This document shows, in pieces, positions 1-14,887 of a stretch of DNA of 17,893 nt (its first letter is position 1; each line of letters starts with the position of its first letter). The position numbers and the translations under genes are program-made. The notes beneath the pieces were generated by a model that had not been told where the DNA came from, did not search any database, and saw only the letters and a program-made list of their open reading frames with translations. Source of the stretch: Planomonospora corallina (GTDB taxonomy: Bacteria > Actinomycetota > Actinomycetes > Streptosporangiales > Streptosporangiaceae); NCBI RefSeq assembly GCF_042650625.1, contig NZ_JBHSBM010000011.1, positions 687,297 to 705,189 of the forward strand, given 5' to 3'.

Positions 1-884
1 ACGCGGCCGACCATCCGGGCGTACATCCGCACGGGGCTGGGGGCCGACGGCGGACTGAGGAAGCCGGGGAGCATGGGCAGGTCCACGGCGAACGGCTGGA
101 GGCGCTCGTAGAGCTCGTCGGCGCCCGCCGGGCGGCGCACGGGATCCTTCTCCAGCAGCTGCCCGATCAGCCGGTCCAGCTCGCCGGGGACGTCCGGCAG
201 CGGCGGCGGGCACTCCTTGACCTGGCGCTCGAACACGGCGTACTCGGTGGGCCCGGTGAACAGCTGCCTGCCCGTCAGCATCTCGTGCAGGACGCAGCCC
301 AGCGCGTACAGGTCGCTGCGCGGGCCGGCCAGGCCGCGCTGGATCTGCTCGGGGGCCATGTAGGCGGGCGTGCCGAGCAGCTGGCCGATCCGGGTGAAGC
401 GGGTGGAGCCGGTCTCGCGGAGCATCGCCAGCCCGAAGTCCAGGACCTTGACGCTGCCGTCGGGGCAGAGCATCAGGTTGGTCGGCTTGAGGTCCCGGTG
501 GTAGATCGAGAGCGCGTGCGCGGCCGAGAGCACCGCGCAGGCCTGGGCGGCGATCGCGGCGGCCCACGGGACCGGGAGCGGGCCGTGCTCGCTGACCAGG
601 TCGGCCACGGTGACGCCCTCGATGAACTGCATCACCTGGTACAGCCGGTGGCCCTCGGCGCCGAAGTCGTAGAGCACGGGGGCGCCGGGGTGCTCCAGCC
701 TGGCCAGGATGCGGGCCTCCCGCAGGAAGCGCTGCTGCAGCTCCTCGTCGGGGCCGGTGTGCAGGCGCAGGAACTTCACCGCAACCCTGCGGTCGAGGTG
801 CCGGTCGTGACCGGCGTAGACCGCGCCCATGCCTCCCTGCCCGAGGGGGAGGTCGTCGAGAACGTACCGGTCGCCGATGACCAT
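1..884 (-). CDS. Ser/Thr protein kinase (Hanks-type). N-terminal kinase domain complete; C-terminal part runs off the window start.
   Basis: Reverse-strand translation from the ATG at 884..882 gives MVIGDRYVLDDLPLGQGGMGAVYAGHDRHLDRRVAVKFLR. Further in are IYHRDLKPTN (catalytic loop), VLDFGLA (DFG) and GTPAYMAPE (APE), with no stops down to position 1. Strong SD (GGGGAGGG, 4 nt spacer) sits before the ATG, 29 nt after the upstream methyltransferase stop. Absent from the ORF track because it runs off the edge. Confidence 0.9.
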   Translation of the reverse strand, partial: MVIGDRYVLDDLPLGQGGMGAVYAGHDRHLDRRVAVKFLRLHTGPDEELQQRFLREARILARLEHPGAPVLYDFGAEGHRLYQVMQFIEGVTVADLVSEHGPLPVPWAAAIAAQACAVLSAAHALSIYHRDLKPTNLMLCPDGSVKVLDFGLAMLRETGSTRFTRIGQLLGTPAYMAPEQIQRGLAGPRSDLYALGCVLHEMLTGRQLFTGPTEYAVFERQVKECPPPLPDVPGELDRLIGQLLEKDPVRRPAGADELYERLQPFAVDLPMLPGFLSPPSAPSPVRMYARMVGR

Positions 885-913
885 CCGGCCCTCCCCTGCG
901 GACTAACGGGCTC

Positions 914-2824
914 CTACACCCCTTGGTCGCACGGCCGCAGATGGCCGTCGACCAGTCCGTCAAAGCCTAACCGGATCAAGGTCTCTCCCAGCGCGGCCGC
1001 CTCACGCAATCGGTCCTCCATCGCCGTCAGGGCGCGGAAGGCCTCGCCGTACCGGCGCTGCTCGGCCAGGGGCAGCATCGGCACCCGGGTCCGCCGCACG
1101 TCGAGCCTGCTGGAGCCGGGGTGGGCGCGGGCGGTGTCGGCGGAGCGCAGGCATCCGGCCAGGAAGCCCGGGTCGAGCCGGTCCGGGTCCACCCGGTAGA
1201 GCGTGAGCTGCGGCCCCAGCGCCGCGCCGGGCTCGGTGACCACCCGGACCGCGCCGAGGGCGGTGGCGACGACGTCGCCCGGCCGGAGCATGACCAGCGC
1301 CGGGTCGGGCGGGGCCCCGCCGGAGGGCGGCCCGCCCGAGGCGACGTCGTCGGCGGTCAGGACCGGGACCGGGCCGGAGTCCGTGGCCATGCGCTGCGGG
1401 GCCGCCAGGAGGGTGACCAGCCCCGTCTTGACCAGCTCGCCGACCGTCGTGGCCGGCAGCTCCTGCCGCTCGGGCAGCGGCTCCAGCGGCGGCGGCGCCT
1501 CCGTGAGGACGGCCGAGGCCGCCCGGAAGCGGTCCAGCGTGTCACCGAAGTCGCGGACGAAGTCCAGCGGCCCCTGCTGCGGGCGGTGCCGGGCCGGGGT
1601 GAGGTCGACCTCGTCGTCGAGCAGGTCGATGATCCGCACGGTACGGCCGGCGCCGGACGGCTCCGCCTCCGGGTCCCGCGCGTAGGCGCGCCAGGCCGGC
1701 TCCACCACCGACAGGTCCTCGCCCGCGTCCACCAGCAGGAGCGCCGAGGGCGGCCTGCTCCCGTCGGGGCGGCGGAGCATCCACAGGTCGGGGCCGCCGG
1801 GGGCCAGGCTGATCACCGCGCGCAGCGCCCCGGCCCGCAGCAGGTTGCCCCGGATCCGCTTGCCGGGGCGGCGGCCGGCCGCGGCGGCGGGCATCAGGAT
1901 CGCCACCAGGCCGCCCGGCCGCACGTGGCTCAGGCAGTGCTGGACCCAGGCCAGCTCGGATTCGCCGCGCGGCGGCATGCCGTACTCCCAGCGGGGGTCG
2001 CCGGTCAGCTCCTCGTGGCCCCACGCGCGCTCGTTGAACGGAGGGTCGCAGACCACCGCGTCGGCGAGCTCGCCGGCCAGGCCGTCCTCGCGGAGCGAGT
2101 CGCCGGCCGCGATCCGGGCCGGTGCGCCGCGCAGCAGCAGGCGGACCGCGGTGATCAGGGCGCTGGTCTCGTTGAGCTCCTGGCCGAGCGGGGCGGCGGC
2201 GTGCAGCAGGAGGGTGCCCACGCCGCAGGCGGGGTCGAGCACGGTGCCCGCGCCGGTCCGGCCGTCCCCGGCGGTCAGGCGGATCATGAGCGCCGCCAGG
2301 TCGTCCCTGGTCACCGCGAGCTGCCGGGAGCGTGCCTCGACGTAGCGCGCGCAGAGGAACTCGAAGGCCTCCCGCGGGCCGCGCTCGTCGGCCAGCCGGG
2401 CGGCCAGCCGGAGCAGCGCCGGGTCGGCCGGCGGCCGGGCGCGGCCGGGCAGGCCGGCCGTGGCGGCCGCCGCGCGGTCCGGGACGCACCGCACGCCGTG
2501 CTCGCGCCAGGTCTCCGGCTCGCGGTGCAGGAAGAGCAGGAAGGCGCCGATCCGGCCCACCAGCTCGCCCAGGCGCAGGTCGTCGACGGAGGTCCGCATC
2601 CGCTGCCAGACCAGGTCGCCGAGGGAGACCTCGAAGGACTTGCCGTTGTGGCGCAGCCACGCGGCGACCTCCGACAGGGAGAAGAGCGGGCTGGAGGCGG
2701 TGCCGCCGACCGGCTGCGGGAAGTCCTCGTGCCGGCGGCGCCAGTTGCTCACCGCGGCCCGTCCCACGTCGGCGAGCCGGGCGATGTCGCCCGCGTTGAC
2801 GGTGATCTCCCGGCTCTCCTCCAT
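914..2824 (-). CDS. Single-chain N6-adenine DNA methyltransferase: N-terminal HTH, HsdM-like AdoMet-MTase core, and one C-terminal HsdS-like target-recognition domain.
   Basis: 636-aa ORF. N-terminus ITVNAGDIARLADVGRAAVSNWRRRH is an excisionase/MerR-like HTH. VLDPACGVGTLL is motif I (AdoMet binding). VVCDPPFN is motif IV (D/NPPF/Y). HVRPGGLVAILMP is an HsdM-like motif. The C-terminus (LRPGDVV...LYRV...FLAGCL...VPMLPLAEQRRYGEAF) resembles a type I S-subunit TRD plus its conserved LPPLxEQ region. No restriction subunit in the window. Confidence 0.85.
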   Translation of the reverse strand: MEESREITVNAGDIARLADVGRAAVSNWRRRHEDFPQPVGGTASSPLFSLSEVAAWLRHNGKSFEVSLGDLVWQRMRTSVDDLRLGELVGRIGAFLLFLHREPETWREHGVRCVPDRAAAATAGLPGRARPPADPALLRLAARLADERGPREAFEFLCARYVEARSRQLAVTRDDLAALMIRLTAGDGRTGAGTVLDPACGVGTLLLHAAAPLGQELNETSALITAVRLLLRGAPARIAAGDSLREDGLAGELADAVVCDPPFNERAWGHEELTGDPRWEYGMPPRGESELAWVQHCLSHVRPGGLVAILMPAAAAGRRPGKRIRGNLLRAGALRAVISLAPGGPDLWMLRRPDGSRPPSALLLVDAGEDLSVVEPAWRAYARDPEAEPSGAGRTVRIIDLLDDEVDLTPARHRPQQGPLDFVRDFGDTLDRFRAASAVLTEAPPPLEPLPERQELPATTVGELVKTGLVTLLAAPQRMATDSGPVPVLTADDVASGGPPSGGAPPDPALVMLRPGDVVATALGAVRVVTEPGAALGPQLTLYRVDPDRLDPGFLAGCLRSADTARAHPGSSRLDVRRTRVPMLPLAEQRRYGEAFRALTAMEDRLREAAALGETLIRLGFDGLVDGHLRPCDQGV

Positions 2825-2908
2825 GGACAGTCAGAGTAGTTGACAGAACTAAAACGGTCTACAACATTTTTGCTTGTGAAGTCCTTCAACCAGTGCTTTA
2901 CTGCCTTC
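2825..2908. promoter_or_regulatory. AT-rich divergent intergenic/promoter island between the methyltransferase (-) and PP2C #1 (+).
   Basis: About 45% GC in a 72% GC context. Contains TTGACA (2840-2845) and a GACAG-N11-GACAG direct repeat (2826-2846). No convincing SD for either flanking gene. Exact -10 elements could not be fixed by eye. Confidence 0.4.
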
Positions 2909-3706
2909 ATGGCACAAAACGAAGGACTGGCACTGCGCTACGCCGCCCGCTCCGATGTCGGAGTCCGCCGCGAGGCGAACGAGGACTCGGGCTACGCCAG
3001 CCCGCGTCTGCTGGCCATCGCCGACGGCATGGGTGGCCACGCGGGCGGAGAGGTCGCCAGCTCGCTCGTCGTGACGACCCTGGCCGCGCTGGACGAGGCC
3101 CTCCCGGTGCCGGACGCCACCTTGGAGGAGAGCCTCCAGGGTGTCGCCAGAGACGTCAACCGCGCGCTGCGCGGGATGACCGAGCGCGAGCCCGCGCTGC
3201 GCGGGATGGGCACCACCTTCACCGCCATGCTCTGGGACGGCGCCGCGTTCGCCCTGGCCCACGTCGGGGACTCCCGCGCCTACATGCTGCGCGACGGCGC
3301 GCTCTACCAGATCACCCACGACCACACCCTCGTCCAGTCGCTGGTGGACGAGGGACGCATCACCCCCGAGCAGGCGGCCGAGCACCCGCGCCGGTCGATG
3401 GTCCTGCGCGTGCTGGAGGGGACCGGCGACGGCGACCTGGACCTGAGCCTGCGCGAGGCCCGGCCGGGCGACCGCTACCTCCTGTGCTCCGACGGCCTGA
3501 CCGCCGTGGTCGGGCCGGAGGCCCTCTTCAACACCCTCACCGACGTCGACGACCCCGACGAGGCCGCCCGGTGGCTCATCGAGCTGGCCAACAGCGGGGG
3601 CGGCCCCGACAACATCACCTGCGTCGTCGCCGACTTCGGCCCCCACCCCGCCTCCACCGAGCGCCTCGTCGTGGGCGCCGCCGCCGAGCAGAGACTGACA
3701 CCCTGA
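2909..3706 (+). CDS. PP2C-family Ser/Thr protein phosphatase (paralog 1).
   Basis: MAQNEGLALRYAARSDVGVRREANEDSGYAS...LLAIADGMGGHAGGEVASS...LCSDGL...GGGPDNITCVVADF are canonical PPM/PP2C motifs. ATG at 2909 preferred over the track start at 2840, which lies in the AT-rich intergenic island and overlaps promoter-like sequence. Confidence 0.88.
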   Translation: MAQNEGLALRYAARSDVGVRREANEDSGYASPRLLAIADGMGGHAGGEVASSLVVTTLAALDEALPVPDATLEESLQGVARDVNRALRGMTEREPALRGMGTTFTAMLWDGAAFALAHVGDSRAYMLRDGALYQITHDHTLVQSLVDEGRITPEQAAEHPRRSMVLRVLEGTGDGDLDLSLREARPGDRYLLCSDGLTAVVGPEALFNTLTDVDDPDEAARWLIELANSGGGPDNITCVVADFGPHPASTERLVVGAAAEQRLTP

Positions 3707-3817: not shown

Positions 3818-3848
3818 GAGGGCCGGGCCCGGGAGAGGGCCCGGCCTC
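3818..3848. terminator. GC-rich hairpin between the convergent PP2C #1 and giant ATPase genes (possible bidirectional terminator).
   Basis: GGCCGGGCCC (3821-3830), 6-nt loop GGGAGA, then GGGCCCGGCC (3837-3846). Extendable with one bulge to about 13 bp. Overlaps the ATPase stop codon (3847-3849). No U-tract, as is common in actinomycetes. Confidence 0.4.
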
Positions 3849-6800
3849 ATCGCTCCGGCGCGAGCCGGTCGGCGGCCCGGTCGATGGCGGTGCCGACCCG
3901 GTCGGCGAGCAGGCCCACCGCGCCGACGGCCCGGGCCACCGGGTCGTCCTCGCCGCCGCCGAGCGCGCGGGCGCGCACGTAGGCGGCCTTCACCTCGGCC
4001 CACCGCGCGGCCTGCCCGGGGGTGAGCCTTCCCCTGATCTCGGCCAGCCTCAGCAGGTTCTCCTCGGCGCCGGACGTGAGCGTCTGCGCCTCGCCGAGGT
4101 AGTGGTCGTCGATGACGGCCTCCAGCTCGGCGTCGTTCATCACTGCCGAGATCCGCGCCGCCAGCTTGGTCATGTTCCGGTAGGAGCCCTGGAGCCGGAA
4201 CGGCGGCTCGGTCCGCGCGGCGTCCGACTGCGCGGCCGAGGCGATGTAGGCCTGGTTGACGGACAGGACCACCCGCTGGACGTGGAGCAGCTTGCGCAGC
4301 ACCGCGAGGATCTGCTCCAGCTCCACCGAGGAGTACGGATGGGCCAGCCGGTCGGCGCGGACGGCCGGGTCGCCCTGCGCCAGCCGTACCAGCAGGCGGA
4401 CGTCCTCGCGCTCGCGGGTCGCCAGCGGAGCCAGGACGGGGTTGGAGGTCAGCGCCGTGTCGACGTAGCTCAGCGCGAACACCTCCTCCCTGCCGGAGAG
4501 CACGTCGCCGAGGTTCCAGACATCGGCGCGGTTGGCGAGCATGTCGGGGATGCGGAACCGCGCGCCCGACTCGGTGTACGGGTTGCCCGCCATGCAGACC
4601 GCGAAGCGCTTGCCGCGCAGGTCGTAGGTGCGGCTCCGGCCGTTCCAGACCCCCTCCATGCGGCGCTGGGCGTCGCACAGCGAGATGAACTTCTGCAGCA
4701 GCTCCGGTGAGGTGTGCTGGATGTCGTCCAGATAGAGCAGGACGTTGTTGCCCATCTCCAGCGCGAAGTTGATCTTCTCGACCTCCTGGCGGGAGGTCGC
4801 GTCCGGGGCCTCGGCGGGGTCCACCGAGGTGACCCGGTGACCCAGCGCCGGGCCGTTGACCTTCACGAAGACCAGGCCCAGGCGGTTGGCGACGTACTCC
4901 ATCAGGGTCGTCTTGCCGTAGCCGGGCGGGGAGATGAGCAGCAGCAGGCCCATCTGGTCGGTCCGCTTGGCGTCGCCGCTCGCGCCCAGCTGCTTGGCCA
5001 GGTTGTCGCCGATGAGCGGCAGGTAGACCTCGTCGAGCAGCTGGTTGCGGACGAAGGAGCTCATCACCTTCGGCCGGTACTCCTCCAGCCGCAGGCGGGT
5101 GCGCTCGGCGGCGACCAGCTCGTTGCGGCGCCGCAGGTAGTCCCGGTAGGCCGGCGCCCGGTGGGTCCGGAAGCGCCTGGTCCGGGCGAGGAACTCGTCC
5201 AGGCGCACCGTCATGCTCCGGCCGGTGACGCGCGGGTGCGCGCCGAGCAGCCCCTCGACGGTCGCCTCCAGCGCCGCCGACGAGTCGTGGCGGGGCAGCC
5301 CTTCGCAGAGCAGTACGGCGACGGCCTCGGGCAGCTCGGGGCAGGAGCGGGCCAGGGCGGCGCCGGAGCCGTCCCCGGCGTTCCTGGAGTCCCCGCTGCC
5401 TCCGGACGCGCCTGCGGTCACGCCTGCGGTCACGGCTCCGGAGCCGCCCGCGAAGGCCTCCAGCCAGGCCTCGGCCAGCCGCCTGCGGCCGGGCAGGTCG
5501 CCGGCGAGGGCGCGCAGGTCCTCGGCGAAGTCGGCGCGGGCGGCGCCCAGCGCCCGGTCGAAGCGCTCCAGCAGCCTGCGGGCCCCGGCGCTCGTCACGA
5601 ACCCGGCCGGAGCGCTCGCCAGCTCCTCGAACAGGTACTCCCCGGCCAGCTCGGAGATCTCCGCGGGATCCCCGAAGGTCCCGGAGGCCGCGGCTCCCCG
5701 TGCCTCCCCGGACACCGGTCCGCCGGATCCGGTCCGTGCCTCCCCGGGCACCGGTCCGCCGGATCCGCTCCGCCCGTCCGGCGCGGCCTCGTCACCTCCG
5801 CGGGCCGGCTGTGCCAGGAAGGCTCCGTCACCTCCGCGGGCCGGCTCCGCCAGGAAGGCCGCCACCGCCGAGCCCAGGGCGCGGCAGGTCTCCTCCACCG
5901 CCGCCACGTGCCCGAACCGGGCGCGTGCCCGGGCCAGCGAGACCGCCCGGGTGGTCCAGGAGGAGCGTTCGGCCTCGTCCGTCCCGAAGGCCCAGAAGAG
6001 CTGGGCCGCCGCCCGCGCGGCCGGGGGGTAGCGGAGCAGCCCGGCGCCCGCGTGCAGCCGGAGCAGCACGTCGAGGATCGCCGCGGCGTCGTGGTCGTGC
6101 ACGCCCCGCTCGTAGCCCTCGTCGTAGCGGCTCTCCGCGGCCCGGCGGACGATCCGGAGCAGCTCCCCGTCGGCCACCGCCGCCTCGTGCAGCGCGTCGA
6201 GCGAGACCGTGAGCCCGCCGGAGCCGCCCTCCACGAGCGGGGTGCCCGCCTCGGCGGCGGCCAGGACCGCGGCGGCCAGGTGCTCGGCCCGGTAGACGTC
6301 GGGCGACTCCGAGACCAGCAGCTGCGACCAGAACGGCCGGGTCGCGGCGAACGCGGGGTCGCCGACGGGGGCGCGGTAGTCGGTCCCGGTGACGGCGAAG
6401 GCCATCTCCCCGCCGTGCGGGACCAGCGTCAGGTCCGCCTCCTGGGTGTTGACCGCGAACCGGTGCCGGCCCAGCCGGATGGTCTCGCCGCCGTCGGTGT
6501 AGAGGTCGAGCCGGTCGCGCAGCGCCCGCCCGGCCTCCTGCCGGGCCGCCTTGACCCGGCCCTCCAGCTCCTCGGCGCGGACCTGGTCGCCCAGCTCGCG
6601 CAGCTCGGCGGCGACCGCGTGCAGCTTGCGCACCATCGGGTCGGAGGCGAAGTAGGTGTTGACCTCGTCGACCGAGCCGAGCGAGGAGACCCGCCGCTGC
6701 ACGCTCGCCAGGATCCGGTCCGCCGAGCCGGCCAGCCGGTCGGCCCGGCGGGCCCGCTCGTCCAGCAGGGCCTGCCGCCGGGAGGAGAACGCCTCGTAGA

Positions 6801-9075
6801 CGTCCTCCCGCTTGGCGGACAGCTCCGCGAGGAAGTCGTCGAACTCGGTGAAGCGCGACTCCAGGTTCTCCAGCTGCAGCATCAGCCGGCCGAGCTGCTC
6901 GTCGCACCGGTCGGGGGTGTCGGCCACCGCCAGGGCCCCGGTGATCGCCTGCCCCAGCAGGGCGAACTCGGCGGCGAAGGCGGCCCGGCCCTCGGCGGTC
7001 AGCAGCTCGCGCCGGCGCGCCCGCAGGGTGGCCCGCGCCCGGTTGACCCCGCCGAGCACCTCGCCCACCCGCTCCAGGATGGCGGTGCGCACCCCGGCGT
7101 CGGCGATGTCGAGCGTGCCGACCACCTCGATGACCACCTCCAGGCCGCGGGCCTGCACGGTCAGCCGCTCGTCGACGGGCTCGGCCTCGGCCGTGGAGGT
7201 GATCTCCGCGGCCTTCGCGGCCAGGCGCCCGACCTCGTCGCGGTAGTCGGCGAAGGCGTCCTCGCCCGACAGGAAGGCGACCGCGCGCTGCGCCGTACCG
7301 TCGAGCCCGTCCCGCAGCTCGGCGTCCAGCCGGTCGATCCGGCCGGTGTCGGCGTAGCGCAGCTCGCGCAGGGTCACCAGGTGTCCCTGCGCCTGGCGGA
7401 GCCCGTCCAGCCGGGTGACCCACTCGGCGGCCGAGCGGGCCGCCTCCCCGCGAGCCCGGCGCAGGAGGGAGGCGATCTGCGCGGCGGCCTCCTCCACCGC
7501 CGTCTCGGCCTGCCCCGTGAGGGAGCGGACCTTCTCGAACTCGTCCAGCACCTGCTCGGCGGTGGCCCGCAGGTCGGCCAGGGGAGTGCGCAGGTCCCCC
7601 TGCACACCGGGGTCGCCCAGCCAGTGGTAGTGGTCGAAGACCCGCGTGCAGGCCGCGATCAGTGCCTCGAACACCGCCTGCGAGGGCGCCATCTCCTCGA
7701 CCATGCGGGCCACCGAGAGGCAGTCGGAGATGCCGCGCACCAGCTCGGCGTTGCCGATCCGCTCCAGCGGGCCGGTCCCGACCGGCTGGGCGGCGGCGTA
7801 GACGTCGGAGGTGAACGGCGTCTGCCACACCTGCATCGGGTGCACCCGGGTCGGCTCCTCCGAGACCGCCCGGAACACCACCAGCGTGCCGTCGTCGAAC
7901 AGCGAGTAGCCGTGGCAGGGGATCGGCGTCGCCACCTGCTTGCGGATCACGTTGTACGGCAGCAGCAGCGAGCGGCCCTCGGCCCGGGCGTGGAACACGT
8001 AGAGCACGTCCTCGCCGTTGACCGAGCGGATGACCCGCTCGAACTCCAGGTCGGTGACGTCGGTGTCGAAGGTCTTGCTCACCCCGGTGGACAGGTAGTA
8101 GCCGCCCGGGAAGATGATGCCCTGGTCCTCCGGGAGCCGCCGGCAGGCCTGGCCGATGCCGTCCAGCCGCACGACCTCCTTGGTCCGGGTGTTGAAGACC
8201 AGGTGCCGCCACTCCGTCTCGTTGTAGGGCCGGATGCGCAGCAGGATCAGCGGGCCGATCCTGGCGTGCTGCACGTCGGCGTCGGCGAGGCTCTGCAGCG
8301 GCTCGGCGACCGGCTCGTGGTAGATCCCCTCGCCGGTCTCCGTGTTGTTCTCGATCTTGATGGTGAGGTCGCCGCCGACGGTCTCGACGAACACCTCGCC
8401 CTGGATCGAGATGTGCGGGTGCCGGCCGAGGACGTGGTCGTCCCGGGTGGTGGCGGTCCACTCGAAGTCGTGCGAGGCGGGGAAGACGTGGTCGCGCTCG
8501 CCCCGGTCGTCGATGTAGGTGAGCGAGCCGTCCGTGCCGACCTGCCAGCGCAGCACCCGGATGTCCTGCGGGCCGGTCCGGAAGACGGCCAGCAGCTTGC
8601 CGTCCACCCGGCGGAGCTGGATCAGCCGGGTCTCCCGGTAGTACCGGTAGAGCTCGGCGAAGTCCCGCTCGAACTGCGGATGGTGGAAGAGCGGCTCGGG
8701 GTCGAACCGGAAGGCGTCCGAGTCCCGGCTGAAGCGGTGCATGGAGAAGACGTCGGCGACGGTCGTCTCCGGCTTCAGCCCGATGAAGACGTTGTACCCG
8801 AAGAGCATGAGATCGCCGATCGAGACGATGTCGCGGGGCACGCAGTTGTTCTCGGTGCGGATCCGCTCGGTCCCGATCAGGCGGAGCTCGGTCCCGCCGA
8901 AGACCTCCAGGCGCCGGGCGTTGAGCTCCTCGGCCCGCCGGGCCAGCTCCCCGGCCTGCTCGGCGAGGCGGGCGCGGAGCACCTCGTAGGTGCCCGCGTC
9001 CAGCGCCTGCTCCGTCGTGCCCTGCGGGCCGGTGAGGGCCTCGGAGGTGTCGGTGACGCTCACGTCCGGCGTCAC
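3847..9075 (-). CDS. Giant (1742 aa) multidomain protein with a C-terminal MoxR/midasin-clade AAA+ ATPase module. Likely the flotillin-associated 'DNA repair ATPase'/DUF3686-like family (family name from memory, unverified).
   Basis: Uninterrupted 5229-nt ORF. GTG start (9075..9073) overlaps the flotillin TGA stop (GTGA overlap). Walker A LLLISPPGYGKTT is encoded around 4906-4935. Walker B is LLYLDDIQH; sensor-1-like motif is FAVCMAGNPY (ATMNP-type, AAA_5 clade). N-terminal ~480 aa is beta-rich, followed by a long alpha-helical/coiled-coil middle. A Gly/Ala/Ser-rich linker contains 12-aa tandem repeats. Confidence 0.8.
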   Translation of the reverse strand: MTPDVSVTDTSEALTGPQGTTEQALDAGTYEVLRARLAEQAGELARRAEELNARRLEVFGGTELRLIGTERIRTENNCVPRDIVSIGDLMLFGYNVFIGLKPETTVADVFSMHRFSRDSDAFRFDPEPLFHHPQFERDFAELYRYYRETRLIQLRRVDGKLLAVFRTGPQDIRVLRWQVGTDGSLTYIDDRGERDHVFPASHDFEWTATTRDDHVLGRHPHISIQGEVFVETVGGDLTIKIENNTETGEGIYHEPVAEPLQSLADADVQHARIGPLILLRIRPYNETEWRHLVFNTRTKEVVRLDGIGQACRRLPEDQGIIFPGGYYLSTGVSKTFDTDVTDLEFERVIRSVNGEDVLYVFHARAEGRSLLLPYNVIRKQVATPIPCHGYSLFDDGTLVVFRAVSEEPTRVHPMQVWQTPFTSDVYAAAQPVGTGPLERIGNAELVRGISDCLSVARMVEEMAPSQAVFEALIAACTRVFDHYHWLGDPGVQGDLRTPLADLRATAEQVLDEFEKVRSLTGQAETAVEEAAAQIASLLRRARGEAARSAAEWVTRLDGLRQAQGHLVTLRELRYADTGRIDRLDAELRDGLDGTAQRAVAFLSGEDAFADYRDEVGRLAAKAAEITSTAEAEPVDERLTVQARGLEVVIEVVGTLDIADAGVRTAILERVGEVLGGVNRARATLRARRRELLTAEGRAAFAAEFALLGQAITGALAVADTPDRCDEQLGRLMLQLENLESRFTEFDDFLAELSAKREDVYEAFSSRRQALLDERARRADRLAGSADRILASVQRRVSSLGSVDEVNTYFASDPMVRKLHAVAAELRELGDQVRAEELEGRVKAARQEAGRALRDRLDLYTDGGETIRLGRHRFAVNTQEADLTLVPHGGEMAFAVTGTDYRAPVGDPAFAATRPFWSQLLVSESPDVYRAEHLAAAVLAAAEAGTPLVEGGSGGLTVSLDALHEAAVADGELLRIVRRAAESRYDEGYERGVHDHDAAAILDVLLRLHAGAGLLRYPPAARAAAQLFWAFGTDEAERSSWTTRAVSLARARARFGHVAAVEETCRALGSAVAAFLAEPARGGDGAFLAQPARGGDEAAPDGRSGSGGPVPGEARTGSGGPVSGEARGAAASGTFGDPAEISELAGEYLFEELASAPAGFVTSAGARRLLERFDRALGAARADFAEDLRALAGDLPGRRRLAEAWLEAFAGGSGAVTAGVTAGASGGSGDSRNAGDGSGAALARSCPELPEAVAVLLCEGLPRHDSSAALEATVEGLLGAHPRVTGRSMTVRLDEFLARTRRFRTHRAPAYRDYLRRRNELVAAERTRLRLEEYRPKVMSSFVRNQLLDEVYLPLIGDNLAKQLGASGDAKRTDQMGLLLLISPPGYGKTTLMEYVANRLGLVFVKVNGPALGHRVTSVDPAEAPDATSRQEVEKINFALEMGNNVLLYLDDIQHTSPELLQKFISLCDAQRRMEGVWNGRSRTYDLRGKRFAVCMAGNPYTESGARFRIPDMLANRADVWNLGDVLSGREEVFALSYVDTALTSNPVLAPLATREREDVRLLVRLAQGDPAVRADRLAHPYSSVELEQILAVLRKLLHVQRVVLSVNQAYIASAAQSDAARTEPPFRLQGSYRNMTKLAARISAVMNDAELEAVIDDHYLGEAQTLTSGAEENLLRLAEIRGRLTPGQAARWAEVKAAYVRARALGGGEDDPVARAVGAVGLLADRVGTAIDRAADRLAPER
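5409..5432. repeat. 2 x 12-bp perfect tandem repeat (CGCCTGCGGTCA) inside the ATPase linker.
   Basis: Read directly at 5409-5420 and 5421-5432. Encodes AVTAGVTAG on the minus strand. Confidence 0.8.
5699..5770. repeat. 2 x 36-bp tandem repeat inside the ATPase linker.
   Basis: Units CGTGCCTCCCCGGACACCGGTCCGCCGGATCCGGTC (5699-5734) and CGTGCCTCCCCGGGCACCGGTCCGCCGGATCCGCTC (5735-5770), 33/36 identical. Encode SGSGGPVPGEAR / TGSGGPVSGEAR. Confidence 0.8.
5791..5862. repeat. Second, unrelated 2 x 36-bp tandem repeat inside the ATPase linker.
   Basis: Units GTCACCTCCGCGGGCCGGCTGTGCCAGGAAGGCTCC (5791-5826) and GTCACCTCCGCGGGCCGGCTCCGCCAGGAAGGCCGC (5827-5862). Encode AFLAEPARGGDG / AFLAQPARGGDE. 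Confidence 0.8.
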
Positions 9076-11300
9076 TCCCGGCCCGCGTCGGCGACGGGGC
9101 CGCCCCCGGCGCTGCCGTTGCCCGCCGCCGGCACGTCCGTGACGGTCACCGGGACGTCCGTACCGGTCGCCACCGTGGCGGTGGGCGTCACCGGCACCGC
9201 GGCGGCCGTCGTCACGGTCGCGGCGCCCCCGCCGTTCCCACCGCTGCCGCCGGAGCCGAGCAGCTCGCGCAGCCGGGCCCCCTCGGGGCCGCCCTCGTTC
9301 ACCAGCTTCACCAGCAGCGCCGAGAGCGACAGATCGCGCACGTCCGAGCTGCCCAGCGAGCCGAGCACCCGGGTCAGGTCGGCGGGCAGGCTCTGGGACC
9401 CGTCGAGGTACGGCCCGGCGAGCGTGCGGGCCACGCCGGAGTGCTCCACGAAGCCGTCCACGCTCTTGCCCATGGCGACCGCGCCGACCAGCTTGTCGAA
9501 GAACACGCTGTCGCCGCCGACGATGTCGATGTCGGCCTTCTCCAGCCCGGCGGCGAGCACCACGGCCTGCGCCTCGGCGACCTTGACCTGGGAGGTGACG
9601 CCGGCCAGGCGGATCTCCTTCTCCGCCTCCAGCCGCAGGCGGTACTCCTCGTGGCCCCGGCTCGCCTCGTCCATCGCGGCCAGCGCCGCCGCCTTCTCGG
9701 TCAGACCCTCGGCCTCGGCCTTGAGCGTCTCGCCGACCCGGGCGGCCTCGGCCAGCGCCTTGGCCTGCTCGCCGTCGGCCTCCGCCATGAGCTTCTCGCG
9801 CAGCCCGGCGGCGACGGCCTGGGCCCTGGCCTGCTCGCCCTCGGCGGCGGCCAGCGCCTTCTCCCGCTCGACCGCGGCCTCGGCCCGGCCGACCTTCTCG
9901 ATCGCGGCGGCGTTGCGCTCGGCGACCTGCACCTCGGCCAGGCCGGTCGCGGCGGCCTCGGCCTGGACGCCCTCGGCCAGGCGGATCTTGGCGCGGGCGT
10001 CGAGCTCGGCGGCCTGCTGGCGCGCCTCGGCCAGCACCAGGGACTCGCGGGCCTTGTGCTTGGAGGCGGCCTCGGCCGCCTCGGCGGCCTTGATGTCCTT
10101 GACCAGCTTCTCCTGCGCCTCGGCCTCGGCCTGGATGATCACGGCCTGGCGGGTGCGCTCGGCCTCCTCGACCACCCGCAGGCGCTTGATGCTCTCCTCC
10201 TGCTCGGCGACCGTCTTCTCCACCGCGACGCGCTCGCGGACGACCTCGGCGATCGAGCGCTTCTCGCCCTCGAGCTCCTTGTCCTTGGCGATGCGGGACA
10301 GCTCGGTCTCGCGCTCGCGGGCGATGACCTCCAGCAGACGGTCCTTCTCGATCCGCTCGCTCTCGATGGCGATGACCCGCTCGCGGTTCTTGGCCGCCAC
10401 CTCGATCTCCCGGGCCTGGTTCTCCCGCTGGATGCCGAGCTGCTCCTCGGTGCGCAGGTCCGCGGTGCTGGCCTTGAGCCGCTCCTCGGCCCGGACCCGG
10501 GCGATCTCGGCCTCCTCGCGGGCGCGCATGGTCTCGACCTCGCGCTTCTGCTTGATCTCCGCGTCGGCCTGGCGGCGCTCCAGCTCCAGGATGGCCTCCC
10601 GCGCGTCCACGTTCTGGCGGGTGATCTCCTTCTCCTCGTGGCGCTGGTACTCGTTGGTCCGCACGTGCTCGATCGCGGTCAGCTCGGTGATCTTGCGGAT
10701 GCCCTGGGCGTCGAGGATGTTCGCCGGGTCGAGCTTGCTCAGCGGCGTCTGCTCCAGGTAGTCGATCGCCGCGTCCTCGAGGCTGTAGCCGTTCAGGTCG
10801 GTGCCGATGACCTGGATGATCTGGTCGCGGAAGTGATCGCGCTGGGTGTAGAGGTCGACGAAGTCGAGCTGCTTGCCGACGGTCTTCAGCGCCTCGGAGA
10901 ACTTGGCGTTGAACAGCTCCTGCAGCGTCTCGGCGTCACTGGCCCGGGCGGTGCCGATGGCCTGGGCGACCTTCACCACGTCCTCGACGGTCTTGTTGAC
11001 CCGGACGAAGAAAGTGATCTTGATGTCGGCCCGGATGTTGTCCCGGCAGATCAGGCCCTCCTTGCCGGAGCGCTCGATCTCGATGGTCTTCACCGAGATG
11101 TCCATGAACTCGGCCTTGTGGACCACGGGCAGCACGACCGCCCCGGTGAAGGTGACGTCGACCTTGTTGACCTTGGACACGATCAGCGCCCTGCCCTGTT
11201 CGACCTTGTGGAACAGGCGCGTGATCATGAAGACGATGCCGATGAGGACGAGCAGGGCGAAGCCCAGGAGCACGCCGAAACCGGTGGAGATGACGTCCAT
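9072..11300 (-). CDS. Flotillin-family protein (SPFH/band-7 domain with long EA-rich coiled coil; YqiK/FloT-like).
   Basis: N-terminal TM segment then an SPFH-like region (MDVISTGFGVLLGFALLVLIGIVFMITRLF...GRALIVSKVNKVDVTF...). Then several hundred residues of E/A/R/K-rich coiled coil (AEAEAQEKL..., flotillin EA-repeat hallmark) and a Gly/Thr/Val-rich C-terminal tail. ATG at 11300 preferred over the track's TTG at 11312 (SD GAGGGA 6-7 nt upstream). Stop overlaps the downstream ATPase start. Confidence 0.9.
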   Translation of the reverse strand: MDVISTGFGVLLGFALLVLIGIVFMITRLFHKVEQGRALIVSKVNKVDVTFTGAVVLPVVHKAEFMDISVKTIEIERSGKEGLICRDNIRADIKITFFVRVNKTVEDVVKVAQAIGTARASDAETLQELFNAKFSEALKTVGKQLDFVDLYTQRDHFRDQIIQVIGTDLNGYSLEDAAIDYLEQTPLSKLDPANILDAQGIRKITELTAIEHVRTNEYQRHEEKEITRQNVDAREAILELERRQADAEIKQKREVETMRAREEAEIARVRAEERLKASTADLRTEEQLGIQRENQAREIEVAAKNRERVIAIESERIEKDRLLEVIARERETELSRIAKDKELEGEKRSIAEVVRERVAVEKTVAEQEESIKRLRVVEEAERTRQAVIIQAEAEAQEKLVKDIKAAEAAEAASKHKARESLVLAEARQQAAELDARAKIRLAEGVQAEAAATGLAEVQVAERNAAAIEKVGRAEAAVEREKALAAAEGEQARAQAVAAGLREKLMAEADGEQAKALAEAARVGETLKAEAEGLTEKAAALAAMDEASRGHEEYRLRLEAEKEIRLAGVTSQVKVAEAQAVVLAAGLEKADIDIVGGDSVFFDKLVGAVAMGKSVDGFVEHSGVARTLAGPYLDGSQSLPADLTRVLGSLGSSDVRDLSLSALLVKLVNEGGPEGARLRELLGSGGSGGNGGGAATVTTAAAVPVTPTATVATGTDVPVTVTDVPAAGNGSAGGGPVADAGRE

Positions 11301-11312
11301 GTGTTCCCTCAA

Positions 11313-11984
11313 CTAGATGGGACGGTCGGGGTCGAGTTCCGCGTCGTACGGCGTCACCCAGAAGAACTCGCCGTCGGAGTCGTAGGCGTAGATCAGGGCG
11401 GTGCTGCCGGCGCCGAAGACGTCGTCGCCGGTCTGTCTGACCTGTACGAGGGCGGAGGAGCCGTCGCGGGAGGTGATCTCGGCCTGGCCGAAGTCCCTTC
11501 CCACCCGGCTGGTGCGGATGACGCAGGTGCGGCCCACGAAGTCGGCGCGGGAGGGAACGCGCTCCTTCGACGCGGCGCGCTGCAGCGGCACCGCCAGCAG
11601 GCGAGCGCCGATCCAGGCGCAGGCGAGCGCCGCGACGAGCACCGCGACCAGGAGGACGGCCTGGGGGAAGGCAGGGATCCCGGCGACGAGGGCCGAGCCG
11701 GTGAGGCTGGTGAACCAGGCGATGGAGACCATCGCGGAGACGGTCACGCCGACCGGCACTCCGCCGAGCCCGAGGAAGGCCAGGAGCCCGCCGACGCCTC
11801 CCGCGCCCCCTGCATCCCCCGCGTCACCGGCGAGCTCGCTCCCGCCGCCCGCCGCGTCACCGTCGAGCGCGCCCCCGGTGAAGAGGGTGAGAATCCAGTA
11901 ACCGGCCACCACGAGCAGCGGGAAACTGAACAGGACGGTGGGGAAAGAGAGCGCGGCCTCGATGAACCGTTCCAACCGACCCAT
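11313..11984 (-). CDS. NfeD/YqiJ-like membrane protein (flotillin operon partner; TM helices plus C-terminal OB-fold-like segment).
   Basis: MGRLERFIEAALSFPTVLFSFPLLVVAGYWILTLF..., several hydrophobic helices, and a C-terminal GRTCVIRTSRVGRDFGQAEI...ALVQV resembling the NfeD beta-barrel. TAG stop lies 12 nt before the flotillin ATG. ATG 11984 preferred; the track's TTG 12011 is the alternative start. Confidence 0.7.
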   Translation of the reverse strand: MGRLERFIEAALSFPTVLFSFPLLVVAGYWILTLFTGGALDGDAAGGGSELAGDAGDAGGAGGVGGLLAFLGLGGVPVGVTVSAMVSIAWFTSLTGSALVAGIPAFPQAVLLVAVLVAALACAWIGARLLAVPLQRAASKERVPSRADFVGRTCVIRTSRVGRDFGQAEITSRDGSSALVQVRQTGDDVFGAGSTALIYAYDSDGEFFWVTPYDAELDPDRPI

Positions 11985-12039
11985 GGATGTAGAAGATCCC
12001 CCTGCTGGCAACCCCGTGGCCGCGTCCCCGAACGCGTGC

Positions 12040-12107
12040 TCCGACTATAACTTGGTAAAGAACGGGCAAAAGAAATAGTTCCTGAAATCCCGAAAAAATC
12101 TTGACCT
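12040..12107. promoter_or_regulatory. AT-rich island upstream of the NfeD-flotillin-ATPase operon (probable operon promoter, minus strand).
   Basis: CTATAACTTGGTAAAGAACGGGCAAAAGAAATAGTTCCTGAAATCCCGAAAAAATCTTGACC is ~40% GC. On the minus strand a TATAGT -10-like hexamer (plus-strand coordinates 12044-12049) lies ~55 nt upstream of the NfeD ATG, preceded by TTGCCC. Spacing to a -35 is not ideal, so only regional confidence. Confidence 0.4.
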
Positions 12108-12141
12108 GGATGGCTGCGGGGTCCCGGGAATCCCGTGCTTT
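12108..12141. terminator. Perfect 10-bp GC hairpin downstream of the ECF sigma gene.
   Basis: GGGGTCCCGG (12108-12117), 14-nt loop, CCGGGACCCC (12132-12141). About 105 nt past the sigma stop (12247). On the minus-strand transcript a U6 run follows only ~20 nt later, so not a canonical intrinsic terminator. Confidence 0.35.
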
Positions 12142-12246: not shown

Positions 12247-13170
12247 TCATCCCGCCGACCGGCGCGCCTGTCTCACCTCGCGGGTGCTCGCCCAGGCGTC
12301 CGCCACCGGGCCCAGGTGCCCGAGCTTGTCGGGGTTGATCACCGAACGGATGGTCTGGATCCGTCCGCCGAGCACATCGAGCGCCAGGGTGTGGAGCACT
12401 CTGCCGTCCCGGTCCCGGAAGACCGCCCCCGGCTCGCCGTTGACCTCGTGCGGCTCGAACGTCACACCGATCCGGGCCATCAGGGGGAAGACGGAGGCGA
12501 GCAGCCGGGCGACGTTCTCGGCGCCGACGACGGCCCTGGCCAGTTGCGGGGCCCTGCCGCCGCCGTCGCCGGCCATCGACACGTCGGCGGCGAGCAGCTC
12601 CCGCAAACCGGTGACGTCGCCCTCCCGCAGGGCGTCGAAGAACCGCGCCGCGAGTTCCGCCCGCTCCGCCCGGTCCGCTTCGAAGCGTGGACGCCCGGCC
12701 TCCATGTGCCGCCGCGCCCGCACCGACAGCTGCCGGCAGGCCGCCTCCGACCGTCCCACCGCCGCGGCGACCTCGCCGAACCCGAAGCCGAACACCTCCC
12801 GCAGCACGAACACCGCCCGCTCCAGCGGGCTGAGCCGCTCCAGCAGCAGCAGCGCCGCCATCGACACCGAGTCGGCGAGCTCCACCGACCGCGCCGGGTC
12901 CTGGTACGGATCGCTCAGCAGCGGCTCGGGGAACCACGGGCCCACGTACTCCTCCCGCCGGACCCGGGCGGAGCGCAGGACGTCGATCGAGATCCGCGTC
13001 ACCGTGGCGGACAGAAAAGCCCTGGTCGACGCGGGGCGGGCCGCCGAGCCGTCGAAACGCAACCACGTCTCCTGCACCGCGTCCTCGGCCTCGCCCACAC
13101 TGCCCAGAATCCGATAGGCGATCGAGAACAGCAGCGGTCGCAGCTCCTCGAACTCCTCGACCTTGCTCAC
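12247..13170 (-). CDS. ECF41-family RNA polymerase sigma factor (sigma-70 regions 2 and 4 with a fused SnoaL/NTF2-like C-terminal regulatory extension; SigJ-like).
   Basis: Region 2 (LLFSIAYRILGSVGEAEDAVQETWLRF) and region 4 (LSPLERAVFVLREVFGFGFGEVAAAVGRSEAACRQL). ECF41 signatures YVGPWFPEP, DGGGR and C-terminal NPDKL. GTG start at 13170 with SD GAGGGAG and 5-nt spacing; the track's ATG at 13233 is the alternative. Confidence 0.9.
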   Translation of the reverse strand: MSKVEEFEELRPLLFSIAYRILGSVGEAEDAVQETWLRFDGSAARPASTRAFLSATVTRISIDVLRSARVRREEYVGPWFPEPLLSDPYQDPARSVELADSVSMAALLLLERLSPLERAVFVLREVFGFGFGEVAAAVGRSEAACRQLSVRARRHMEAGRPRFEADRAERAELAARFFDALREGDVTGLRELLAADVSMAGDGGGRAPQLARAVVGAENVARLLASVFPLMARIGVTFEPHEVNGEPGAVFRDRDGRVLHTLALDVLGGRIQTIRSVINPDKLGHLGPVADAWASTREVRQARRSAG

Positions 13171-13264
13171 ACCGACTCCCTCACCCTGGAGGTCCTCCCG
13201 CCGGGCCGTACTCGCCGGCGCGGACCTCCCCACCGATCATCGGGACCACCGGGCCGCCCGAGTG

Positions 13265-13300: not shown

Positions 13301-13774
13301 TCAGTGGAACCGGCCGGGCTCGTAGCCGCCGGCCGGCTGACGGGTGATGATGTTCAGCCGGTTCGCCGCATTCATGAAGGCGACCAGGGTCACCAGCGCG
13401 GTGAGCTGCTCCTCGTCGTAGTGCATGGCGGCATGCGCCCAGACCTCGTCGCCGACCCCGCCGGCCGCGTCCGCGACCCGGGTCCCCTCCTCCGCCAGCG
13501 CCAGCGCGGCGCGCTCGGCCTCGGTGAAGACCGTGGCCTCCCGCCACGCCGCCACCAGGTTCAGCCGCACCGAGGTCTCCCCGGCTGCGGTGGCGTCCTT
13601 GGTGTGCATGTCGATGCAGGCGGCGCAGCCGTTGATCTGGCTCACGCGCAGCGCCACCAGCTCCTGCGTCACGGCCGGCAGCGGGGACCCCTTGAGCGCC
13701 TTGCCCGCCGCCATGAAGTGCTTGAGGATCTGGCCGGCGGTCGGGGAGGCGAAGTAGTTCAGCCGCGCATCCAT
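13301..13774 (-). CDS. Carboxymuconolactone decarboxylase (AhpD-like) family protein; canonical ECF41-associated 'COE' gene.
   Basis: 157 aa with the CxxCxxxH motif (GCAACIDMH) typical of AhpD/CMD. Strong SD GAGGAG 4 nt before the ATG. Sits immediately upstream of the ECF41 sigma on the same strand and is preceded by the ECF41 promoter motif. Confidence 0.85.
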   Translation of the reverse strand: MDARLNYFASPTAGQILKHFMAAGKALKGSPLPAVTQELVALRVSQINGCAACIDMHTKDATAAGETSVRLNLVAAWREATVFTEAERAALALAEEGTRVADAAGGVGDEVWAHAAMHYDEEQLTALVTLVAFMNAANRLNIITRQPAGGYEPGRFH

Positions 13775-14113: not shown

Positions 14114-14887
14114 CTACGGTGTCTGCGGTTCGGCGGCGCCGACGATCACGGGGGTGTCCTGCGCGGGACCCGGCTCGTCCACCACGTCGGCCAGCACGCA
14201 GGTGATGTTGTCCGGGCCGCCGCCGTCGCAGGCCAGCTCGATGAGCGTGCGGGCCGCGGTGTCGAGGTCGTCGATCGTGGCGAGCACGTGCCGGAGCCGG
14301 TTGGCGTCGACCACCCCGGACAGGCCGTCGGAACAGAGCAGGTAGCGGTCGCCGACCTCGGCGTCCCGCAGGGACAGGTCGACCTCGATGCTCTCGCTGC
14401 CGTCGAGGACCTGGAGCAGGATCGACCGGTGCGGGTGCCGGGCCGCCTCCTCGGCGGTGATCCGCCCGTCGTCCATCAGCGTCTGGACCAGCGTGTGGTC
14501 GTAGGTGATCTGGTAGAGGTCGCCCTCGCGGAGCAGGTAGGCACGGGAGTCCCCGATGTGGGCCAGGGCGACGTGCAGCCCGTCCCAGAGCATCAGGGTC
14601 AGTGTGGTGCCCATCCCGGTGAGGCTCGGGTCCTGCGCGACCAGCTCGCGCAGGCGCCGGTTGGCCCGGTGGACCCCGGCCTCCGCCGCGGCGGCCAGGT
14701 CCGCGGGGTGCTCGTGGTCCAGGGACGCGACCACGGCCACCGCGGCCGAGCTGGCCACCTCCCCGCCCACGTGGCCGCCCATTCCGTCGGCGACGGCCAG
14801 CAGCCTCTGGCCGGCGTAGGCGGAGTCCTCGTTGCCCTGGCGGACCCGGCCGACATCCGAAGCCGCCGCGTAGCGGAGCATGATCAT
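14114..14887 (-). CDS. PP2C-family Ser/Thr protein phosphatase (paralog 2).
   Basis: MIMLRYAAASDVGRVRQGNEDSAYAGQRLLAVADGMGGHVGGEVASS...LCSDGLSGVV...GGGPDNITCVLADV. Collinear with paralog 1 at ~55-60% aa identity (by eye). Like paralog 1 it has no obvious SD. Confidence 0.9.
   Translation of the reverse strand: MIMLRYAAASDVGRVRQGNEDSAYAGQRLLAVADGMGGHVGGEVASSAAVAVVASLDHEHPADLAAAAEAGVHRANRRLRELVAQDPSLTGMGTTLTLMLWDGLHVALAHIGDSRAYLLREGDLYQITYDHTLVQTLMDDGRITAEEAARHPHRSILLQVLDGSESIEVDLSLRDAEVGDRYLLCSDGLSGVVDANRLRHVLATIDDLDTAARTLIELACDGGGPDNITCVLADVVDEPGPAQDTPVIVGAAEPQTP

Follow-up and report, generated by a model that had tools for sequence, protein, structure and literature searches.

A three-gene operon for a YqiJ-like protein, a flotillin and a giant AAA+ ATPase in Planomonospora corallina, a putative membrane-maintenance module

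The stretch of DNA analysed here, called the window throughout, comprises 17,893 nucleotides (nt) of the actinomycete Planomonospora corallina (contig NZ_JBHSBM010000011.1, positions 687,297 to 705,189) with a G+C content of ~73%, and its genes were mapped by frame analysis of the G+C content at third codon positions (GC3) together with Pfam. The system under study is an operon on the minus strand (3847-11984), encoding, in this order, a small protein with three transmembrane segments, a flotillin-type protein with an SPFH domain, and a giant AAA+ ATPase; protein lengths are given in amino acids (aa):

11313-11984, minus strand: small membrane protein gene, yqiJ/bacC-like, 223 aa
9072-11300, minus strand: flotillin-type SPFH gene, yqiK/bacD-like, 742 aa
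3847-9075, minus strand: giant ATPase gene, bacE-like, 1742 aa from GTG 9075 or 1738 aa from GTG 9063

Gene layout, products and conservation of the operon

The three open reading frames (ORFs) show GC3 values of 0.89 (small gene), 0.98 (flotillin gene) and 0.98 (giant gene), and are packed as described in the original prediction, which had been made from the sequence alone. The TAG stop of the small gene (11315-11313) is followed by 12 nt, ttgagggaacac, including the Shine-Dalgarno-like run GAGGGA, and then by the flotillin ATG at 11300. At 9075-9072, a GTGA combines the flotillin TGA (9074-9072) with an overlapping GTG (9075-9073). The database start of the giant protein is the second in-frame GTG (9063), located 8 nt past the flotillin TGA and 12 nt downstream of GTG 9075. 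With either start the giant gene is tightly coupled to the flotillin gene, and to this extent the translational coupling read earlier from the GTGA stands; the overlap itself, however, is not conserved, and the database start lies beyond it. Where genes are annotated or called, the gap between flotillin and ATPase amounts to ~110-200 nt in proteobacterial, Bacteroidota and Deinococcus loci, and the projected ATPase starts of the other loci range, approximately, from an overlap to ~230 nt.

The conservation of this arrangement was evaluated in 80 loci returned by a genome scan and in loci found by tblastn against plasmids, with L086 and L087 as additional loci. In all 82 loci with upstream DNA, the gene immediately preceding the giant gene is a same-strand flotillin homologue, and this holds for L086 and L087 as well. 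The YqiJ-like gene was detected by tblastn in 77 of 82 loci, and annotated small ORFs occupy its position in Hymenobacter and Deinococcus. The loci belong to Actinomycetota, Pseudomonadota, Bacteroidota, Deinococcota, a Thermoanaerobaculia metagenome-assembled genome (MAG), and a 'Deltaproteobacteria' MAG, so that the triad extends across Actinobacteria and beyond, to at least six phylum-level groups. Plasmid copies were found by tblastn in Pseudomonas (pQBR103), Proteus, Vibrio, Photobacterium, Halomonas, Deinococcus, Hymenobacter, and Streptomyces. Clustering of the flanking ORFs (~80 loci) showed that only three gene families recur, namely the YqiJ-like protein, the flotillin, and the ATPase. 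Since it is present in all informative related loci, the triad is confirmed as a real three-gene unit whose recurrence goes beyond chance, and the giant gene is, as had been proposed, a conserved addition to the yqiJK-type pair.

A fourth conserved gene was rejected, the sole extra flank 'family' being an antisense shadow ORF within the flotillin gene. In 44 loci this ORF (10852-11316, plus strand; GC3 0.97) appears 'conserved'; it was discarded as a gene because it represents a high-GC3 artefact of a high-G+C gene.

Homologues of the giant protein number in the thousands, and across actinomycete orders the ATPase and the flotillin are 60-85% identical (ATPase ~70%). Among 1.84 billion representatives, the DUF3686 domain of the giant protein accounts for just 789 clusters at the 50% identity level, and full-length members are mostly 1600-1900 aa long, which suggests that the giant protein evolves slowly and with one fixed architecture.

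The small protein contains three hydrophobic segments and a beta-rich (OB-like) C-terminal domain, and can be aligned with its positional counterparts in Pseudomonas, Deinococcus, and Hymenobacter, the last of which is annotated DUF1449. Pfam and NCBIfam scans gave zero matches, YqiJ_N (PF21001) and YqiJ_OB (PF07290) included, whereas E. coli YqiJ, used as a control, matched both models at ~1e-15. A profile of the 31-member small-protein family aligned with E. coli YqiJ in hhalign with a probability of 87.9% (E 3e-6, 142 columns). The NfeD model (PF01957) does not match the window protein, and among the 31 family members only that of Deinococcus was hit, at E 0.0078, below the cut-off. Of the earlier description as 'NfeD/YqiJ-like', the second half is retained: because of the profile match, 'YqiJ-like' seems a reasonable and better label than 'NfeD'. 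The layout is also that of YqiJ, with three transmembrane segments, a C-terminal beta domain, and the gene directly upstream of the flotillin gene, as in E. coli yqiJ-yqiK and B. subtilis yuaF-floT.

The 742-aa protein is composed of an N-terminal membrane anchor (its single hydrophobic segment, residues 1-34), an SPFH domain, a long Glu/Ala-rich coiled coil, a divergent C-terminal globular part, and a low-complexity tail. The SPFH domain surfaces only after the coiled coil is cut away: full-length scans with Pfam, NCBIfam, and PADLOC gave no match, and a scan of the N-terminal 251 aa alone matched Band_7 at E 1.6e-10 (41.8 bits against a cut-off of 23.6, residues 32-175). This match and the BLASTP alignment with E. 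coli YqiK (29% identity over 461 aa, E 3e-41) bear out the predicted SPFH/flotillin identity. The hhalign alignment with YqiK (99.9% probability, 408 columns) ends at YqiK residue 439, and the homology spans the SPFH domain and the coiled coil. The Pfam Flot domain (PF15975) was not matched by C-terminal flotillin fragments at E up to 10, whereas the YqiK control matched it at 6.4e-41. The E. coli pair differs from the window proteins in matching the YqiJ_N, YqiJ_OB, and Flot models, and also in having no downstream ATPase gene. A sequence search of the flotillin against solved structures returned no significant match. The tail (window 9072-9330) is a low-complexity region rich in Gly, Thr, Val, Pro, and Ala with 21-nt tandem repeats (9100-9168 in Tandem Repeats Finder, TRF), and 33/66-nt repeats occur in the coiled coil at 9706-9885.

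The giant ATPase

A Planomonospora corallina database entry (P0001, 1738 aa), annotated 'DNA repair ATPase', matches the giant protein with 100% identity. The giant protein is soluble, with zero transmembrane segments, and the profile searches proposed for it found DUF3686 (E 1e-224), DUF7902, and AAA/AAA_5 by Pfam. These matches agree with AlphaFold2 (AF2) models, for which window fragments were aligned to full-length database proteins, on the layout given in the original prediction (beta-rich N-terminus, helical middle, repeat-bearing linker, C-terminal AAA+ module):

7624-8949, minus strand: DUF3686 region, one long N-terminal helix followed by an all-beta domain predicted to be propeller-like
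6904-7810, minus strand: helical bundle/scaffold after the propeller, ~residues 420-713 of the 1738-aa form, with DUF7902 at 7006-7260
5698-5859, minus strand: low-complexity linker with two tandem 12-aa duplications, AFLAEPARGGDG/AFLAQPARGGDE and SGSGGPVPGEAR/TGSGGPVSGEAR (TRF)
4444-5043, minus strand: AAA+ ATPase core (Pfam AAA_5 and AAA)
4906-4923, minus strand: Walker A, GYGKTT
4717-4740, minus strand: Walker B, LLYLDDIQ
4576-4593, minus strand: sensor-1 region, MAGNPY
4522-4548, minus strand: PDMLANRAD
3850-4443, minus strand: helical lid and further conserved C-terminal helical domain with the invariant motif EPPFxLQGSYRNM

The model of the N-terminal 720 residues (87 homologues) reached a predicted local distance difference test (pLDDT) value of 87; in it, a long helix leads into an all-beta domain (61-414), after which comes a helical bundle (420-713). 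Its top Foldseek matches are all beta-propellers, including WD40 proteins, paraoxonase, and the clathrin terminal domain with linker, at TM-scores of only ~0.3. According to this model, the all-beta domain is propeller-like and far from any solved family, and the combination of propeller and helical scaffold loosely recalls membrane-coat proteins. In an alignment of 88 homologues, conservation is highest in the propeller and AAA+ parts and lowest in the linkers, with variable and gappy blocks at residues 1051-1150 and 1201-1250. The linker repeats of the window correspond to two 36-nt tandem duplications, 5698-5772 and 5790-5859, each of ~2 copies with 94% matches in TRF.

The Walker A, Walker B, and NP/Arg motifs (MAGNPYTE...IPDMLANRAD) of the AAA+ module are invariant in the 88 sequences. 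The Walker B motif reads LLYLDDIQH: where Asp-Glu is usual, every one of the 88 aligned homologues, drawn from two phyla, has Asp-Asp; in AAA+ proteins such as DnaA, a DD-type Walker B may mean slow, switch-like ATP hydrolysis. The AF2 model of the C-terminal 443 residues (pLDDT 86) comprises an AAA+ core followed by the lid and extra helices. A beta-hairpin (fragment residues 173-186) lies between the Walker B and sensor-1 strands, and the beta2-alpha2 segment (fragment residues 109-126) forms a loop, not a hairpin. The Foldseek matches of this model, RuvB, Skd3/ClpB-NBD2, MCM, ClpX, and NorQ, are rings that translocate protein or DNA, and all belong to the pre-sensor-1-hairpin AAA+ group. 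The assignment to the MoxR/midasin clade made earlier is plausible as far as MoxR membership is concerned: AAA_5 reaches 28.7 bits (cut-off 22), and MAGNPYTE...IPDMLANRAD resembles MoxR-type motifs. However, the generic AAA model scores about equally, also above its cut-off, and the best E-values in Foldseek are those of RuvB; NorQ, of the MoxR family, has the best TM-scores (0.53-0.61) but ranks 22nd or lower. No VWA partner gene was found in the window or in the conserved flanks.

The product name 'DNA repair ATPase' is carried by nearly all named database homologues seen, and the annotation given in the original prediction (DUF3686 + AAA) proved to be the exact database wording. A true DNA repair ATPase, with the adjacency to flotillin being incidental, would be consistent with how Pfam describes DUF3686 and how NCBI names the products, with RuvB as the best Foldseek match by E-value, and with the presence of recJ two genes downstream in P. 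aeruginosa. Nevertheless, the RuvB equivalogs of NCBIfam score only 20-22 bits on the giant protein against cut-offs of 282-299, and its sequence matches among solved structures are limited to P-loop-level stretches of p97/VCP and similar proteins. The Pfam scan detected no DNA-binding or nuclease domain, the synteny with two membrane proteins is invariant while all other surroundings vary, and no supporting paper was found. An unrelated function as a repair protein, the outcome that would have contradicted the original prediction, is thus hardly credible, and the label 'DNA repair ATPase' is baseless and should be dropped.

The bac operon of Pseudomonas and the link to PspA

In Pseudomonas, Lysobacter, Neisseria, and Hymenobacter, the triad is located in one operon after DUF2170/CesT-like and PspA_IM30 genes. 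The P. aeruginosa locus (L084) has the order DUF2170-PspA-213aa-688aa-giant-PLD-YaeQ-RecJ-LasB (PLD, phospholipase D family), and since it ends with YaeQ, RecJ, and LasB, its giant gene could be identified as PA3728 (PA14_16190, bacE), its flotillin gene as PA3729 (bacD, PaFlo3), and its small gene as PA3730 (bacC). They form part of bacABCDEF (PA3732-PA3727), the Psp-like 'biofilm-associated cluster', in which bacC-bacD-bacE share order and strand with the window genes. BacC (213 aa) is also without a Pfam match, BacD (688 aa) is an SPFH protein, and BacE (1746 aa) contains DUF3686, DUF7902, and AAA. In the 88-sequence alignment, the window giant protein is ~50% identical over its full length to BacE (PA3728, P0123), encoded at the syntenic position, and the flotillins are likewise ~50% identical. 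Unlike the bac operon, the window is devoid of bacA (YjfI/CesT-like), bacB (PspA), and bacF (PLD).

A class of operons encoding CesT/Tir, PspA, Band-7/flotillin, AAA+, and YqiJ/YuaF proteins has been described by Ravi et al. 2024 (mSystems, PMC11237479), together with widespread 'abbreviated' operons of only flotillin, a YqiJ/YuaF protein, and sometimes an AAA+ ATPase. The window corresponds to the abbreviated form without the PspA dyad, and differs from the described class in that the Flot domain is undetectable in its flotillin. That study was purely computational and limited the mechanism of the ATPase to an analogy with Vps4. The triad is therefore already known, as a computationally described family partly studied in Pseudomonas through bacC, bacD, and bacE; from the 'uncharacterised' machine of the original prediction, what remains is that no functional study of the ATPase was found.

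In P. aeruginosa, bacA-F constitute one transcript by reverse transcription PCR, the bacD-PA14_16190 junction included, and all Bac proteins increase 6-13-fold in a bacA mutant (Wallart et al. 2024, PMC10948618). PA3728-PA3732 were up-regulated in all phage-infected samples with two virulent phages (PMC12041424). Osmotic shock induces the PspA protein PA3731, and a deletion mutant lacking it shows defects in biofilm, swarming, and virulence (Mace et al. 2008, PMC2587700). PA3728 is recurrently mutated in cystic fibrosis isolates (PMC8190622). The published bac phenotypes concern bacA, bacB and, weakly, bacD, but never bacE. In B. subtilis, the SPFH protein YdjI is required to bring PspA to the membrane, a result cited in PMC10936438. 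The eLife 2022 'Arc' paper was rejected as evidence on PA3729, which is a mere abundant background protein in its pull-downs. The literature searches retrieved nothing mentioning DUF3686, nothing combining 'DNA repair ATPase' with flotillin, and no functional study for YqiK with an AAA+ protein.

Proteobacterial loci add further membrane-active genes to the triad. A PLDc_2 (HKD) gene directly follows the ATPase gene in P. aeruginosa and Lysobacter, a rhomboid protease gene overlaps the ATPase stop in Neisseria, and another rhomboid protease is encoded nearby on pQBR103. These added PLD/rhomboid genes are located, in the coordinates of each locus, as follows:

L084, 14260-14952
L087, 13405-14112
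L086, 13303-13878
L001, 2484-3038

The combination of SPFH, AAA+, and rhomboid proteins recalls the mitochondrial SLP2-PARL-YME1L hub. Membrane-protein quality control could accordingly be considered as the function of the triad: the scaffold would confine damaged or unfolded membrane proteins and the AAA+ protein would act as an unfoldase, extractor or chaperone on these clients, and not on the scaffold or PspA, in parallel to HflK/C-FtsH or SLP2-PARL-YME1L but minus a protease domain of its own. An SPFH scaffold paired with an AAA+ machine is found alike in HflK/C-FtsH, SLP2-PARL-YME1L, and prohibitin-m-AAA, with a rhomboid sometimes in the unit. However, the ATPases of these systems are membrane-anchored classical-clade proteases, whereas the window ATPase is soluble and protease-free, probably falls into the pre-sensor-1-hairpin group, and has a propeller as well as a helical scaffold of ~900 residues. 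The Pfam scan of the giant protein found no protease domain, and the operon contains no conserved protease gene, despite the rhomboid genes near the triad in Neisseria and pQBR103. Repeated pairing of SPFH scaffolds with AAA+ machines, as in HflK/C-FtsH (PMC13220708), and the stabilisation of unfolded proteins by FloA-NfeD of S. aureus (PMC11222466) speak for quality control, and so do the unfoldases ClpX and ClpB/Skd3 among the structural neighbours of the AAA+ model. The strong conservation of the propeller suits one fixed partner better than many clients, and this role is considered unlikely.

Neighbouring genes and possible function of the module

The remaining features of the window surround the operon on both sides:

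3-902, minus strand: Ser/Thr kinase, truncated at the window edge
914-2824, minus strand: helix-turn-helix and N6-methyltransferase
2840-3706, plus strand: PP2C phosphatase
12040-12110, minus strand: AT-rich upstream element, reading GATTTTTTCGGGATTTCAGGAACTATTTCTTTTGCCCGTTCTTTACCAAGTTATAGTCGG, with the core GGAACT ... TCTTTA ... TATAGTC
12247-13233, minus strand: extracytoplasmic function (ECF) sigma factor with C-terminal SnoaL-like domain, just upstream of the operon
13301-13774, minus strand: CMD family
14114-14887, minus strand: second PP2C paralogue, further upstream of the operon
15107-16693, plus strand: prfC
16795-17775, plus strand: Gfo/Idh/MocA oxidoreductase

The downstream methyltransferase, kinase, and PP2C genes and the upstream ECF sigma gene were rejected as parts of the operon, as they stand beside the triad in few Streptosporangiaceae loci only. 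The methyltransferase matches PADLOC MTase_I (E 8e-87) and mad2 (E 5e-17), and the kinase, 11 nt after it, matches PD-T4-6 (E 3e-96) and mad6 (E 7e-66), with the divergent PP2C gene as a third member. This trio adjoins the triad in two Streptosporangium loci (L004 and L005), is rearranged upstream in Microtetraspora (L025), and is absent from other loci; its genes could simply serve ordinary signalling in actinomycetes, or could form a defence-like module of methylation and kinase type, resembling MADS or Pgl. In other loci, the ECF sigma gene and the second PP2C gene are not conserved beside the triad.

The originally noted AT-rich island with TATAGT is present, with a core, GGAACT..TCTTTA..TATAGTC, that three Streptosporangium loci share without change; in Planotetraspora, a different AT-rich sequence occurs at the same place. 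A promoter scan upstream of the operon gave no sigma-70 consensus match. Since the sigma-70 consensus does not fit, the element is a candidate promoter or operator that may be read by another sigma factor or bound by a regulator; a sigma-54 promoter has been proposed for the Pseudomonas bac operon, in contrast to the TATAGT-containing element of the window. A terminator scan gave nothing above chance, and an Rfam scan of the window identified no family.

The adjoining MTase_I-like and PD-T4-6-like genes would fit a reading of the triad as an anti-phage or conflict system, in which the flotillin and YqiJ-like proteins would sense membrane perturbation, the ATPase would drive an abortive or protective response, and the PLD-family protein would be the proteobacterial effector. 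The induction of PA3728-PA3732 by two virulent phages (PMC12041424) agrees with such a system, but is equally expected of a phage-shock response. Megaplasmid copies (pQBR103, Deinococcus, Hymenobacter), the patchy distribution among Pseudomonas species (PMC13086221), and weak PADLOC matches of the Pseudomonas PLD protein to DrmC, MkoB, and MkoC also speak for a defence system. By contrast, none of the three window proteins has a significant match in PADLOC 2.0, where the sole hits, to mad8 (E 6e-4) and IetA (E 2e-3), come from the P-loop region of the ATPase, and the other two proteins hit nothing. Moreover, the operon contains no conserved effector, the methyltransferase and kinase neighbours occur in only ~4 of 80 loci, and the conservation is high (60-85% identity across actinomycete orders, 789 DUF3686 clusters), which makes a dedicated defence role quite improbable.

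The best explanation, to which slightly better than even chances are given, is that the three genes constitute one envelope-stress or membrane-maintenance module, the 'abbreviated' PspA-less form of the CesT/YjfI-PspA-YqiJ-flotillin-AAA+ operon (bacABCDEF), with the ATPase remodelling flotillin/PspA assemblies or their clients. This reading is based on the invariant synteny, on the operon shared with PspA in other phyla, and on the stress and phage induction in Pseudomonas, and it coincides with the membrane-stress or phage-response role suggested in the original prediction. The three-transmembrane YqiJ-like protein and the YqiK-type flotillin would form a membrane-anchored SPFH oligomer, a cage or cup, at the cytoplasmic face. 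The soluble giant protein would dock on this oligomer via its N-terminal beta-propeller and helical scaffold, and the flotillin tail, abutting the ATPase start, might be a candidate docking peptide for the propeller. The C-terminal AAA+ ring, placed on a flexible and variable linker, would then spend ATP on remodelling the assembly, whether by building it, dismantling it or extracting clients. Flotillin-recruited, ESCRT-III-like PspA polymers may be a further substrate of the ring in organisms with a PspA gene, whether close by or at another site. In this scheme we infer the contact of the ATPase with flotillin or PspA, the formation of a ring, the identity of the substrate, and the role in actinomycetes.

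Several observations weigh against a membrane-maintenance module of this kind. E. coli yqiJK functions without such an ATPase, sibD/ibsD following yqiK, and the Asp-Asp Walker B may mean slow, switch-like hydrolysis and not a processive motor. As no PspA, YjfI or PLD gene was detected by tblastn within 10 kb in any actinobacterial locus, the window holds a minimal form of the operon, and for the actinobacterial form the link to PspA is indirect. In Pseudomonas, deletion of PaFlo3 caused only ~20% less biofilm and no stress phenotype (PMC13086221), and the literature search found no experimental study, biochemical, structural or genetic, of the giant ATPase or BacE in any organism.

A more specific and rather doubtful proposal is that the giant protein is an ATP-driven remodeller of bacterial flotillin (SPFH) cages and/or PspA polymers, an independently arisen functional counterpart of Vps4. 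The likeness to Vps4/ESCRT-III lies in an AAA+ ATPase that is genomically tied, in the long operon form, to PspA, a member of the ESCRT-III family. The difference is that the giant ATPase is homologous to Vps4 only at the level of the AAA+ fold and is without an MIT domain, and that PspA is absent from the window operon. A 2025 review stated that a Vps4-like ATPase 'appears absent in bacteria' (PMC7619361). If the remodeller proposal were true, the near-universal pairing with one flotillin subtype would provide a first handle on the active turnover of bacterial flotillin assemblies.

For bacterial flotillin and PspA assemblies, the giant ATPase is an obvious candidate regulator, since at least six phylum-level groups keep it operon-locked with one flotillin subtype and its identity between actinomycete orders is 60-85%. 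The actinomycete form, as a minimal, PspA-free unit of three genes, would thus be the simplest system in which the target of this ATPase can be tested.

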